The position numbers and the translations under genes were made by a program. Of a stretch of DNA of 64,000 bases, positions 3,585-59,348 are shown in pieces; the stretch's first letter is position 1; each line of letters opens with the position of its first letter. This DNA is from Dictyostelium discoideum (lineage: Eukaryota). The DNA lies in assembly GCA_000004695.1 (NCBI GenBank), contig CM000151.3, positions 864,001 to 928,000 of the forward strand. The letters run 5' to 3'. The notes below the pieces were generated by a model. It had not been told where the DNA came from and searched no databases. It saw only the letters and a program-made list of their open reading frames with translations.

Positions 3585-4231
3585 ATTTTTTTTTATTTTT
3601 ATTTTTATTTTTTTTTTTTATAAATTTACTTAATTTTTTTCTTTTTTCCCTACATTGCTGGTTATTAAAAAATAATAATAAAACACTCACCCCCCTCCCA
3701 CATTTTGTGTTTTAAATTCTATTAAAAAATTTATTATTAAGATTTTTTTTTTTTTTAATTAAATAAAATAAAAAAATAAAAAAAATAATAAATAATTTTT
3801 TAAAAATAAAAAAACACACAATTTTTATAGTAAACCACACACTCTTATACCCTATTTTTATAAATATAATTTAAAATATTTTATTTATATAAAATTTTTT
3901 TGTTTTATTTTGTTTTATTTTTTTTTTCTTGGTTTTTTTATTGTCACTACACAACAAACATAATTTAATTAAAGAATAAAGTTTTTTTATTAAAATAATT
4001 TAAAGAAAAAAAAAAAAAAAAAAAAAAAAAAAAGGAAAACCCAAAAAAAAAAATCATTGCAGGTTTGACTGTATAGATTTTTTTTTTTTTTTTTTTTCTA
4101 CACTAAATTTTTTTTTTTTTTTTTTGTAAAGAAAAAAAAAAAAAAAAAATAGAGTAAAAAATAAAAAGAATAATAATAATAATAATAATAATAAATAATA
4201 TATAGATAGATAGATAGAGACATATAGAAGA

Positions 4232-48629: not shown

Positions 48630-50082
48630 ATGTTGTCAAATATTGTTAAAAAGACAATTCAATCAAGTAAGAATTTAAAAAGTTTAGTATTAAATAAATC
48701 AACATCATCATTGGTTTATCAAAAGAGATTTTTAAATGTTCACGAATATCAAGCACAAAAAATGATGAAATCATATGGTATCAATTGTCCAGTTGGTAAT
48801 GTTGCAGAGACACCAGAAGAAGCTGAAAAGATCGCAGAAGTTATGAACACACAAGATTTAGTAGTCAAAGCACAAGTTTTAGCAGGTGGTAGAGGTAAAG
48901 GTATTTTCACAAGTGGACTTAAAGGTGGTGTTCAATTATGTTCATCAGCAGAGGACGTAAAGAAATTTGCATCAAAAATGTTAGGTCATACATTGGTAAC
49001 CAAACAAACCGGTGAAGATGGTAAAGTAGTTCATCAAGTTTACGTCACTGAACGTCATTTCCTTCGTAAGGAAATGTATTTCGCAATTCTTATGGATCGT
49101 AAAGCTGGTGGTCCAGTTATGGTTGCTTCACCAGAGGGTGGTGTCGATATTGAAGGTGTTGCTCGTGATAATCCATCTGCAATCTTCAAAGAACCAATCG
49201 ATATCATGATTGGTGTTCAACCAGAACAAACTAAAAGATTAGCTGAAAAATTAGGTTTCTCAAAAAAAAATATTTCAATGGTAAGTAATCAATATATATA
49301 TATATATTAATATTAAATTTATAAATATATTTAGATAGATATTTGATTCTAATTATTTTTATTTTTATTTTTTTTCTTTTTTAAATTTTTAATAGGCTCA
49401 AGATCAAATGAAAAAATTATATGACTTTTTCATTAAGAATGATTGTACATTAGTAGAGATTAACCCATTAGCAGAGACAGCATCTGGTGATGTATTATGT
49501 ATGGATGCCAAATTGAATTTCGATGATAATGCTGCATTCCGTCATCCAGATATTTTCAAATTAAGAGATAAATCTCAAGAGGATCCACGTGAAGTTAAAG
49601 CAGCAGAGTTTGATTTGAACTACATTGGTTTGGATGGCAATATTGGTTGTTTAGTAAATGGTGCAGGTTTAGCAATGGCATCAATGGATATCATTAAACT
49701 CTATGGCGGTAGCCCAGCAAACTTTTTAGATGTTGGTGGTGGTGCCACTCAGAAACAAGTCACTGAAGCAATCAAACTCATCAGTAGCGATAAAAAAGTT
49801 AAATCAATTTTAGTCAATATTTTCGGTGGTATCATGAAATGTGATGTCATTGCTTTAGGTATCATCGCTGCTTTGAAGGAGTTATCAATCGCCACCCCAT
49901 TAGTAGTTCGTCTCCAAGGTACCAACGTTGAAGCTGCAAAGAAAATCATGGAAGACTCTGGTCTTCGTCTCATTGCTGCTGATAATCTCGATGATGCTGC
50001 TCAAAAATCTGTAAGAATCGCTGAAATCGTTTCACTTGCCGAAAAGAGTGATCTCGAAATTTCTTTTAAATTACCATTATAA
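48630..50082 (+). CDS. Succinyl-CoA ligase (succinate--CoA ligase) beta subunit, mitochondrial; 2 exons.
   Basis: Exon 1 is 48630..49280 (mitochondrial presequence [19 protein letters not shown]..., ATP-grasp region [33 protein letters not shown]...[14 protein letters not shown]...), ending ...NISM|GTAAGT. The ~115-nt intron ends TTAATAG|. Exon 2 is 49396..50082 ([49 protein letters not shown]...[38 protein letters not shown]... CoA-ligase domain). Both junctions are anchored to the track ORFs. Confidence 0.9.
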
Positions 50083-50752: not shown

Positions 50753-51603
50753 TTATGGTTGAAATAAAGGATTTTCAATTTCTTCGGGTTTATCATTATT
50801 TGAATCATTCGTATTATTATTATTATTTATATTATTTATATTATTAGCACCATTACTATTATTATTATTGTTATTATTATTATTATTATTGTTATTATTG
50901 TTATTATTATTTAAACGCAGTAATAGTTTTTTACCTTCTTTAAGATCAAATGAAAGATCTTTGGAAGACTCTAAAACAGTAGAGGGACTATCCCAAGATT
51001 GAATTGGTAATAATTGTTCATTGGTTGATTGTTTCAAGATATCATCATCGAAATGATCTACGCCATTGGTACCTAAACTACTACTATTTCCAATGCTATA
51101 GTTACTATTGACACTACCAACACTTGAACTTAAAATCTCTACATCTCCACTTATAATACTATTACCATTTGCATCGACACTACCCAAACTACTATTGGCT
51201 CCATTATTTGAGGATGGTTTTCTTCCGTGTTTCTTTGGAGAAAATTCAATCAAGGAAGCAGTCTTTTCATCGATACCTAGTTTTTGCATAATTTTAGCTT
51301 TTGATGGATCATATTCTTTTGGTTTCTTTTTTCCACTCATATAGGCATTATATTCGTCTGGATCGATTTTCAATTGTTTGGCATCGATATTCTCTAAAAA
51401 GGTAACGGCAATACCAAAAGTTGTTAAATAGTAGTATCTCTCCATTTTCAATTGGTCTTGACTACAAAACTTTGATATAAATTCGAAATTACTACACAGA
51501 TTTGGTACATTTGCATGAATTACAACATAAATTAAATGTGGTAAGAAATCATCTGCACCACCTGGACTATCAGAATTTGATAATAAAACTATTTAATTAC
51601 AAA

Positions 51604-51660
<57 letters not shown>

Positions 51661-52476
51661 GTAAATTAATAATCTAAACAAATTTAAATATTTCTTTTCT
51701 TTTTTTTTTTTAAAAACTTACATAAAATAATTTTACAACATTTTAAAACACATTCTAATTTTTGAGAAGGTGAATAAAGTTCATTTAAAGCTTGTAACTC
51801 TTGTTGAGCAGTAAACCAAAGATCTTTATCACAATGAATGGGCGAAATTTCCAAATGTTTTGGTTCGACAAATACTAATTTACTCATACGTTCAGAGAGG
51901 AGAGTATCACGTTCCAAAGTATCAGGCGTTGAGAATACGATTTTGTAAACGGTTTGATATAGATAATTTTCAATTTCAGCCAAAGGTGGAGCGGTTATAT
52001 CCTCTTCAATATTTGAATCCATTAAAAGATTTGATGGTATTGAACTATAGATTTGATTACTTTGAATCTTTGTTTTCATTTCCCTCATAAATGATAGGAT
52101 CATCTCTGCTAAAGCATCCTGACTTTGTGATTTCTTTTTTAAAAAACCTTTAATAAAATCATCAACTGATGATTTCTTTAACTTTTCAACTAATGAATTA
52201 ACTTGTGCTTCTGGTATTCTAATTTGTTGTCTAATTGTTGCTGGTGATGGTGGTGATACAGATTGTTGTTGTTGTTGTTGATTATTATTATCATTTGATG
52301 ATGTTAAACTCTTTGTATTATTATTATCATTTGAACTTGATAAATTATTTGTTATTTCATTATTATCAATGGTTGAGCTACTTTTAGAACTTGCAGCTGT
52401 AGCATTTGTACTACTACTAAAAATAATTATGGAACCTCTTTTTGGTGCTACTAATGAACCATTATTATTATTATTG

Positions 52477-52514
<38 letters not shown>

Positions 52515-52683
52515 TTGTGAAAGTGAAAAATAACCTTCAATTAACCTATCTCTTTCTGGTTTATCCATTTTTGCTAATTCTAAATTCCAACTTTGTCTTA
52601 ATTCTGATCTTGAACCAAGTGATGATGAACTAGATGATACCCATTTTGAATTAGTAGGTGAAGTACTACTACTATTATTGTTA

Positions 52684-52763
<80 letters not shown>

Positions 52764-52955
52764 TGTTTGTGATTTTCCTTTTGATGGTGATTTTTGTATA
52801 TTTGTACCAGGTGTTGAAAATGATAATGTTGATTTTGATTTACCACTTGGAATTCTATTTCTAATATGCATACTTCTTGATTTATTCTTTATTGGTAGTG
52901 TTGGTGTAGTTGAAGGTGATGTTACTTTATTCTCTTTCTCTGTTAACATTTCCAT
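50753..52955 (-). CDS. VPS9-domain protein (Rab5-family GEF-like); 2 exons as annotated here. It may have further 5' exons; see the PX gene.
   Basis: Exon 1 is 52955..51722 (MEMLTEKENKV... polyN/polyS ... EIENYLYQTVYKIVFSTPDTLERDTLLSERMSKLVFVEPKHLEISP...YSPSQKLECVLKCCKIIL|T-GTAAGT). The 133-nt intron contains (ATT)n and ends AAATAG|. Exon 2 is 51588..50753 (TT TTA TTA TCA... = FLLSNSDSPGGADDFLPHLIYVVIHANVPNLCSNFEFISKFCSQDQLKMERYYYLTTFGIAVTFLENID...). It has the VPS9 signature ADDFLP.LIYVV...L.SN..FI..F......GE.GYY.T....A..F. The phase-1 junction is verified against both track ORFs. Confidence 0.8.
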
Positions 52956-53153
52956 AGTTTTTTCAATATCACCACTCCAACTTGATAATGCTCCGAATAA
53001 ATAATCATTTGAATAAAATGGATAAATCTTTGATAAGAAATTAATATTAATTTCATATTTATTCTTTTTAATTTCTATATTAAATAAAAAAAAATAATAA
53101 TTAGTAAAATATAATAAATATTAATAAATAAATATAATAAATATTAATAAATA

Positions 53154-55787
<2,634 letters not shown>

Positions 55788-56600: not shown

Positions 56601-57372
56601 ATGAACATACCAATAATTGAATCGCCTACAGATGAAAATAATAACAATAATATAAATAGTAAAGGAAATATATCTATAAATAATGAACAAGATATAAATA
56701 ATAATAATAATAATAATAAAAATAAAGATAATGATAGTAATAGTAATGGTGATGATAATAATAATAATAATTCCAACAACAAAATAATGGAAGCACAATC
56801 ACAACAATATGTTGATAATAATGAAATAATAAATAAAATAATAAATAAAGAAGAACCTATAGAAACAGTAACCACTACAACAACAACCACCACAACAGCA
56901 GCAGTAGCATTTAAAAATTCACAATCACCATCACAATCACCATCACAATCACCATCACAATCACCATCACAATCACCATCACAATCACCATCACAATCAC
57001 CATCACAATCGCCATCACAATCACCTCAAATAGCAGGAAGAGGTGATAGTGGTGGTGGTGGAGGTGGTACTACTACCACCAACACAGATAGCTCCATTCC
57101 AAGAATTTTAACATCAAATGATGATGGTGATGATTATGAAGATGATGAAGAGGAGGAAGAGGAGGATATTCAAGAGGATGAGCATAATCACAATGACTAT
57201 GAAGGCAATGATAATGATGGTATTAATGAAAACTATGATGAAGAATATAATGAACAAGAATATCATGACAATTATGATGATTATCAAAATAGTTCAGAGG
57301 TTTATCTTGTAAAAATGAATGAAATTGAACAACAATTAGATAGTGTTAGAAGGTATGGAGTAACTGCCATAG

Positions 57373-57424
<52 letters not shown>

Positions 57425-57445
57425 CATTGTATTTATTAATTCATA

Positions 57446-57481
<36 letters not shown>

Positions 57482-59348
57482 AGTGAATATGAGCAATTAC
57501 AAACTATTTCATCGATAATATCAGAGAAGCAACCAATGTCAAGAACTCATGTTTATGCAACAAGTGAAATAGATAGTAGTAGTCTACATGAACTAAATGA
57601 ATATGATGAATATGATATAGTGGATGAAGAATCTTATCATCGTTATGGTCATGATATTCCATATCAACAACAAAATCAAATATACCATTTACAGCGTCAA
57701 CATCAACAACATCATCAACAACAACAACAACAACAACAAAAACAACAACACCATCACCATCACCACTATAATAATCATAATCAATTAGCAAATTACAGTG
57801 AGAGTGATAACTTTGGATCAACAAGCGAAAGCCGTTATAATCATCATAATGATGCACGTTATTATCATGATGAAGATGAAGAAGATGAGGAAGAAGAAGA
57901 AGAAGAAGAAGAGGACCAAGAGGAAGAAGAAGAGGAGGAGGAAGAAGAAGAAGAGGAGGAAGAAAGAGATGAAGGATATGACGGTGATATTTCAGATCGT
58001 ATACATTGGTTACCACAAACTCAAATTAGTATTGGAAGTAGTATAAATAATAGTAGTATTACAAGCAATAATAATAGTAGTAGTGTTAAATCACCAATAT
58101 CAACCTTTAGAAAAGCAGTATTATTAAAGAAAATTGATAAGGCCTTAAATTCAATGCAAAAAACCACTGGTGGAACTAATCCTTATCCATTGGTTGGCTA
58201 TGAAAATACTGATGATGAGGATGAAGATAAAAGTTTTGCAACATGGGAGCAAAATTTACCTAACCCACCATCAAGCTATAACCAAAAACCACTTCCTGAA
58301 CAACCCCAAGCAATTAGAGCAACAACACCAAATTCAGTATCACCAACTCAAAATGTAACATCACCAACCCAAAATCCAATATCGCCACCACCAACTACTA
58401 CAACAACAACCACCACCACTACTACCACTGCCACAATAACTAATAAAAACGATGGTAACAACATCAATGAAAATAAGAGATCAACACCATCACCACTATC
58501 AATTCAACAAACACCAAAAAGAGTTACACCTAAAAAAGATAACGGAAATCATTCAGCAAAAAAAACATTAAGTTCTGGATATATTACAAATTTGGTTACA
58601 CCAAATAAAAAACAATATCAACAACAACAACAACAACAACATCACCATGGTGATAATGAGTCTTCAGGATTATCAGTTAGTAGAGAGATTGAACAGTCAA
58701 TAGAATCTTCACTTTTAATGGGACAGGCAACTCCATCAAGAATAAGATTCCAACAATATCAACAATCACCTTCATCTTTACACCACCACCACCACCATCA
58801 CAACCAACATATCCGTTATCAAGATAGTAACACTCATAATTATCACCAAACTCCTCCACCACCTCAACCATCATCTTTAGTATACCAACCAGAGACTCTA
58901 TATGATCCATACTATCAACCACAACCAACACCAACCCAAAATACACCAACACCAACTATTTTTGAAAACTTTCAACAGTATGGTTCATTCTTTCCACCTC
59001 AATCTCCATCACCAGCTACACCTTTACACAACAACAATAACAACTACAATATTAATAATAACCACAACAACAACAACAATAATAATAATCAACAGTACCA
59101 AGAGAGTCCAGAACAAAAAAGTCAAGCCATTCGATTATTGGAGAGTAAAAAACTCTTATTACAAGTTTACAAGTTTTTAGAAGATAGCACCAACATTCAA
59201 GACTTAACATTTATGAACCTAATATTTAAAGAATTGGCCAATATTAATTCATCCTCATTGTGGGAAAAATCATTCCACTCTATTAACGAATTGGTACAAA
59301 ATGACAAGATTGAAAGGATTTTACAATTGCATATTCAAAGACAACAGC

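Follow-up and report, generated by a model that had tools for sequence, protein, structure and literature searches.

A probable three-exon gene for a PX, pseudoGTPase and VPS9 protein in Dictyostelium discoideum, with a candidate CUE-like module

Results

Gene structure

The window (the whole 64-kb stretch of Dictyostelium discoideum DNA that was analysed) was extremely AT-rich and carried long poly-Asn/Gln coding tracts. The list of open reading frames (ORFs) placed two neighbouring ORFs on its minus strand, namely a PX ORF at 55787..53154 (877 aa) and a VPS9 ORF opening at ATG 52955. The initial annotation had proposed that both belong to one spliced gene, and its description of the interval between them proved accurate in most respects: the two ORFs lie in one frame (both codon tops congruent to 2 mod 3), two in-frame TAA codons separate them (53156-53154 and 53123-53121), and exactly 55 stop-free codons lead from the second TAA to ATG 52955. 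Its hand translation of the open stretch contained a few wrong residues, the correct reading being YLLYFTNYYFFLFNIEIKK... rather than YLYYLTNYYFFFINIEIKK.

We consider it highly probable that 55787..50753 (-) is one three-exon gene with 53164..53075 as its U2-type GT-AG intron, and infer from the sequence that this intron is spliced in D. discoideum itself. The exons 55787-53165, 53074-51722 and 51588-50753 (-) would encode 1603 aa, including the stretches SVFKYEIKKNKYE and CKIILFLLSNSDSPGGADD. Exon 1 (53165..55787) runs from ATG 55787 through aa 1-874 to the first base of the split Glu875 codon, a G at 53165, and encodes the PX domain, an F-box-like region and a Rho-like pseudoGTPase. Exon 2 (51722..53074), placed by the gene model and by conservation in the alignment, contains a CUE-like domain, low-complexity linkers, the helical region preceding VPS9 and the N-terminal part of the VPS9 domain itself. 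Exon 3 (50753..51588) supplies the remaining VPS9 domain and the C-terminal tail, and ends with a TAA stop at 50753-50755. Intron 2 (51589..51721 on the minus strand; 133 nt, phase 1, TTAT/GTAAGT...(ATT)n...AAATAG/TT, the slashes marking splice sites) interrupts the VPS9 domain between KIIL and FLLSNSDSPGGADD, and its removal links ...CKIIL to FLLSNSDSPGGADDFLP..., giving a full-length VPS9 domain. A naive ORF reading cuts the PX-VPS9 gene in two, and two short AT-rich introns are needed for the correct model. Exact look-ups of the fused 1603-aa protein, the 877-aa PX ORF, a 689-aa spliced VPS9-only model and the 423-aa raw ORF returned no match in the protein collection.

Intron 1 (53075..53164 on the minus strand; 90 nt, phase 1) has the anatomy that the initial annotation ascribed to it. 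Its boundaries are TATG/GTATTT...TATAG/AA, both TAA stops lie inside and are removed with the frame preserved, and the joined product reads ...SVFKY-E-IKKNKYEIN..., as had been proposed. The branch A of an ACTAAT hexamer at 53100-53105 (-) is 26 nt distant from the 3' splice site, and between the two, about 12-20 nt from the acceptor, lies a T9 run. The AT content is 96.7% in the intron, compared with 80% in the 119 nt between the intron and the ATG and 69-70% in clear flanking exon sequence. In D. discoideum introns, the median length is 103 nt, the AT content is 89%, ACTAAT is the commonest branch-point hexamer and polyT peaks 15-40 nt from the acceptor (Irimia & Roy 2008, PMC2483917). Because its size, AT content, ACTAAT and polyT fit these figures, 53164..53075 would be a textbook intron for this genome. 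Most of it (53077-53163) consists of about eight imperfect copies of a 10-nt AT unit, ATATTAATAA (+ strand), and both in-frame TAA stops fall within these repeat units. The donor GTATTT agrees with the GTAAGT consensus only at +1 to +3 and +6, together with a G at -1.

The open frame upstream of ATG 52955 was less informative by itself than had been supposed. The 55 open codons had been called unlikely by chance, which holds against mononucleotide-shuffled versions of the 165 nt (0.24% of trials remain open) and fails against real 165-nt windows of 82-90% AT in the same 64 kb, where simple repeats leave 5.7% open in a given frame. The open frame alone is therefore not decisive, and we set it aside as stand-alone evidence.

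Two neighbouring features were recorded. A 305-aa ORF at 56601-57518 (+), acidic and of low complexity with (SPSQ)n and poly-Thr tracts, is divergent from the PX-VPS9 gene and starts about 810 nt past its ATG, across an extremely AT-rich spacer. On the other side, a succinyl-CoA ligase beta-subunit gene at 48630-50082 (+), with its own GTAAGT...AG intron at about 49281-49396, faces the PX-VPS9 gene tail to tail. The succinyl-CoA ligase beta-subunit gene also adjoins the PX-VPS9 gene in P. violaceum (L002, 1-791), but on the same strand; this neighbourhood is kept between the two, with a local inversion.

Domain composition of the predicted protein

From the N to the C terminus, the predicted protein comprises the PX domain, the F-box-like region, the Rho-like pseudoGTPase, a CUE/UBA-like three-helix module, the helical region and the VPS9 domain. 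The PX domain (55233..55430 (-), aa 120-185), already called in the initial annotation, matched Pfam PF00787 with E 4.3e-15 (56.5 bits vs. a cutoff of 21.6), and its motif RRYSEF at aa 127-132 (55392-55409 (-)) fits R(R/K)(Y/F)S(D/E)F. The F-box-like call corresponded only to a sub-threshold match. The region at 54819..54914 (-) (aa 292-323, LLDLPSLLSLSATCNYLFNTISSYSDLWKILY) is conserved, and PF12937 matches seven of nine orthologue segments (best E 0.0019), whereas the window protein itself stays below the Pfam threshold (E 0.011, 15.9 bits vs. a cutoff of 24.3).

The GTPase-like domain (53166..54053 (-)) is interrupted by a long poly-Asn insert. Its best PDB sequence matches were to Rac1 (E 7e-9), and the Pfam Ras match covered aa 761-841 with E 5.2e-8 and only profile positions 68-141. 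At G4, ILVGLHRD aligns to ILVGTKLD of Rac1, so that LHRD (53364-53375) replaces [NT]KxD. At G1, the P-loop pattern GxxxxGK[ST] is replaced by GITDTPKS (53904-53927), in which the second Gly is Pro, and the orthologues (GTPETPTS, GIDNNGTS and GPPNLSQS) do not conserve the P-loop Lys. The Rac1 likeness, the partial Ras match and the loss of the G1 and G4 motifs agree with the earlier description of a degenerate Rho-like domain, which by these sequence features we classify as a Rho-derived pseudoGTPase.

The VPS9 domain (51383..51818 (-), spanning intron 2; aa 1294-1394) matched PF02204 with E 1.1e-34, in line with the earlier call, and the match is full length (profile 1-103 of 104) only once intron 2 is spliced. 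It contains GGADDFLP at aa 1335-1342 (51539-51562 (-)), which, following structural work on Rabex-5, we take to be the motif holding the catalytic Asp. The helical region before it gave a weak DUF5601 match at aa 1178-1220 (E 0.0034, 17.9 bits vs. a cutoff of 23).

Conservation of the fusion among dictyostelids

When a collection of 5.8 billion proteins was searched for homologues, eight dictyostelid proteins were obtained: one each from D. purpureum, P. violaceum, T. lacteum and C. fasciculata, two paralogues from A. subglobosum, an entry of EukProt and an environmental protein from JGI; no D. discoideum protein was among the eight. Comparison with orthologues, one of the checks suggested for the fusion, supported a single gene: in all eight homologues, one polypeptide carries the Pfam domains PX, Ras and VPS9. 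Single PX+Ras+VPS9 genes include CYY_002602 in P. violaceum and those annotated in T. lacteum and C. fasciculata as 'Phox domain-containing proteins'. D. purpureum DICPUDRAFT_159036 showed 56% identity in a best local alignment covering 51% of the query, and identity of the eight orthologues to the window protein was 44-58% in a 280-column alignment of the junction region. The window protein is longer (1603 aa vs. 1170-1391 aa in the orthologues), and the poly-Asn/Gln inserts of the window gene are much longer.

The codons upstream of ATG 52955 are conserved in all eight orthologues, with the consensus KKNKYEIKISFLSKIFPKYPxExxxxxLSSYEGDxEKTIELL and 10 invariant columns among nine sequences in a 54-column alignment. 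The spliced junction is identical in length to that of D. purpureum (SVFKY-E-IKKNKYE vs. SVFTF-D-FKKNKYE). When 40 of these codons were compared with D. purpureum DNA, 21 were identical, 9 synonymous and 10 amino-acid-changing, and the nucleotide differences were distributed 8/7/16 over the three codon positions, a pattern that marks the stretch as apparent coding sequence under purifying selection.

Intron positions were obtained by mapping annotated exons at the orthologous genomic loci, and the position of intron 1 is conserved. D. purpureum (L001, 4212-4283, TTTG/GTAAAT...TTTACTAAC...AAAG/AC, at the homologous Asp) and P. violaceum (L002, 4149-4219, TATG/GTATGT...ACAG/AA, at the homologous Glu) each have a phase 1 intron there as the sole intron of the gene. 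T. lacteum (L003, 3054-3136, AAAG/GTATGC...ACAG/AA) has a phase 1 intron at the homologous Glu, and that of C. fasciculata (L004, 3353-3453, ACTC/GTAAGT...ATAG/AC), also in phase 1, lies one codon upstream. Both A. subglobosum paralogues (L005 and L007) have no intron at the junction: single exons covering aa 219-917 and 289-1036, respectively, start ahead of the F-box-like region, cross the pseudoGTPase and the junction and reach into the VPS9 domain. The JGI contig (L006) likewise has no intron there within an uninterrupted 1374-aa ORF, and its junction sequence equals the spliced P. violaceum product exactly. The initial annotation had cautioned that GTATTT deviates from the strongest donor consensus; this carries little weight, because the donor of the junction intron differs between species (GTAAAT, GTATGT, GTATGC and GTAAGT).

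The JGI contig (3300028160, Ga0256900_1002779, 4885 nt) holds its intron-free PX-Ras-VPS9 ORF of 1374 aa downstream of 695 nt of stop-rich sequence, and the encoded protein is approximately 75% identical to that of P. violaceum. It could be an assembled mRNA or come from a lineage that lost the intron; no poly(A) tail is present, and we do not count it as transcript evidence.

Intron 2 (after KIIL, phase 1) also occurs in C. fasciculata (L004, 4375-4465) and both A. subglobosum paralogues (L005, 3823-3930; L007, 4175-4248), whereas D. purpureum, P. violaceum and T. lacteum lack it. This distribution reads as patchy loss or retention of an old intron. The conserved residues CILNCCKIIL, which precede FLLSNS(D/E)SPGGADD, are missing from both the annotated A. 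subglobosum model P0008 and protein P0007 of EukProt, whereas the L005 DNA (3823-3930, DF837586.1) encodes CILNCCKIIL followed by T/GTAAGT; the annotated donor T/GTATAT, 30 nt upstream, is probably a mis-call that removes part of the VPS9 domain.

A three-helix module spanning the former start codon

The conserved segment upstream of ATG 52955 belongs to a predicted CUE/UBA-like three-helix bundle at 52923..53066 (-) (aa 878-925), which spans the former VPS9 start. In the fused protein, this ATG (52953..52955 (-)) is an internal Met at aa 915. The orthologues have an internal Ile or Met opposite it; Met occurs in the two group-4 species, with D. purpureum also having Met at this position. Pfam CUE (PF02845) matched seven of nine orthologue segments (best E 1.4e-4) and the related motif DMA (PF03474) matched eight of nine; the window's own segment, which is slightly diverged, matched neither PF02845 nor PF03474.

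A confident AlphaFold2 model (pLDDT 85) of window 52911-53072 (-), from exon 2 alone and with the orthologue alignment, showed a bundle of three helices (residues 3-16, 22-31 and 36-50). Residue 40 of this model, within helix 3, corresponds to the Met of ATG 52955, so that a VPS9-only protein would start partway through a conserved, folded module. The best Foldseek match in the PDB was the CUE domain of CUEDC1 (probability 0.97, TM 0.68), followed by UBE2K UBA, SMARCAD1 CUE1, Tollip CUE and gp78 CUE, all with E-values >0.1, not significant, as expected for 54 residues. A search of the CUE-like alignment profile against PDB sequences gave only a spurious repeat-protein match (E 0.017) and was less informative than the fold comparison. 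By the model, the segment is predicted to be a compact three-helix bundle like solved CUE/UBA domains.

In structures of the Vps9p CUE domain, ubiquitin contacts are made by an (M/I)-F-P motif that follows helix 1 and by a di-Leu with which helix 3 ends. At the first motif, I/L-F-P is present in the six non-Dictyostelium orthologues and I-Y-P in D. purpureum and the window protein; at the second, LL is present in most orthologues and M-L in the window protein. That the segment is a genuine ubiquitin-binding CUE-type domain, conserved in dictyostelids and representing a further acquisition by a Rabex-like Rab5 GEF, seems to us plausible, though somewhat short of probable.

Alternative readings of the junction

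A single gene might in addition yield short products. Retention of intron 1 would halt translation after 5 codons and give a PX-pseudoGTPase protein ending ...KYGIY-stop, and initiation at Met915 would give a GEF-only protein; the moderate strength of the donor and the Met at 52955 in both group-4 species are compatible with such forms. In a Met915 product, however, two and a half helices would be missing from a conserved domain, and A. subglobosum, having no intron, is unable to make the retention isoform. We regard these additional products as unlikely.

Much less probable still are two separate genes, one for a PX-pseudoGTPase protein ending at TAA 53154 and one transcribed from its own promoter and translated from ATG 52955, with the 55 codons being a 5'UTR that is open by chance. 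Each ORF does have its own ATG and stop, GTATTT is below the strongest consensus, D. purpureum also has Met at the ATG position, and the 5.7% of equally AT-rich 165-nt windows that are open in the 64 kb make an accidental open frame conceivable. Against this, the supposed 5'UTR is conserved as protein in eight of eight orthologues and, according to the AlphaFold2 model, completes a three-helix domain that the ATG cuts within helix 3. Four other species conserve the intron position and the A. subglobosum junction lies within one exon, whereas two genes would have only about 200 bp, 90 of it intron-like repeat, for a terminator and a promoter; moreover, the fused architecture already appears in a published D. 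discoideum table.

Joining of the ORFs by another splice pair, such as 53177/53064 or 53198/53064, is the least probable reading, since eight GT..AG pairs excise both stops in frame and, of these, 53164/53075 alone retains every conserved residue and matches the orthologue junction residue for residue, whereas the other seven lose sequence that every orthologue has kept (VF.., KKNKYE or part of the CUE-like module) and use poor donors (GTTTTT, GTTCAT or GTCTTC) or acceptors within conserved coding sequence.

Discussion

The three-exon gene with intron 1 at 53164..53075 can be related to an entry in a survey of Vps9 proteins (Herman et al. 2018, Traffic 19:546, PMC6032885). Table S1 of that survey gives the CDD domains of D. 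discoideum DDB0233291 ('DdRabexA') as 'PX, P-loop NTPase, Vps9' and places the protein in the Rabex+GAPVD1 clade. Matched by domain architecture, DDB0233291 is most probably the window gene, the tabulated architecture being that of the window gene once 53164..53075 is spliced out; the entry lists no CUE-like or F-box-like region. Our literature search on DDB0233291 found nothing beyond this supplementary table. Because the annotations of sister species and Table S1 have the PX/NTPase/VPS9 architecture, the fused model is already public; the fusion of PX, pseudo-Rho and VPS9 domains is known rather than new, and nothing changes for the field in this respect.

Like mammalian Rabex-5 and yeast Vps9p, the window protein has a VPS9 domain with the GGADDFLP motif after a helical region, here one with a weak DUF5601 match, whereas its PX, F-box-like and pseudo-Rho domains are absent from both. 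Its putative ubiquitin-binding module has counterparts in the two proteins; it lies N-terminal to VPS9, in contrast to the CUE domain of yeast Vps9p, which is C-terminal. The corresponding modules are the CUE domain in yeast Vps9p and a zinc finger/MIU in Rabex-5 (PMC6032885). PX and a C-terminal VPS9 domain are also combined in the PDZ-PX-Vps9 proteins of ochrophyte stramenopiles (Herman et al. 2018, PMC6032885). As these differ from the window protein in lineage and accessory domains, the ochrophyte and dictyostelid PX-VPS9 proteins are probably independent fusions.

From the known properties of its domain families, the window protein is predicted to act on Rab5-family GTPases as a Rabex-like guanine-nucleotide exchange factor. 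Its PX domain would target it to PI3P-rich endosomal, macropinosomal or phagosomal membranes, and the CUE-like module may recruit it to ubiquitinated cargo, in analogy with the CUE domain of yeast Vps9p and the zinc finger/MIU of Rabex-5. The nucleotide-dead Rho-like domain could serve as a scaffold or as a regulatory or protein-interaction surface, and the F-box-like region as a protein-interaction surface.

The CUE-like module is a small possible addition and would be only a modestly new detail. Herman et al. (2018, PMC6032885) discussed ubiquitin-binding modules gained by Rabex-like proteins, namely CUE in fungi, a zinc finger in holozoans and a UBA-like module in Sexangularia, and listed none for the Dictyostelium protein. 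If genuine, the module would be a previously untabulated one alongside these three, and would bring PI3P recognition through PX, a dead Rho domain and ubiquitin binding together in one polypeptide. It would fit the recurring theme that Rabex/Vps9-type GEFs gain ubiquitin-binding domains, and suggests that coincidence detection of PI3P and ubiquitinated cargo may operate in the activation of Rab5-family GTPases on Dictyostelium macropinosomes and phagosomes.
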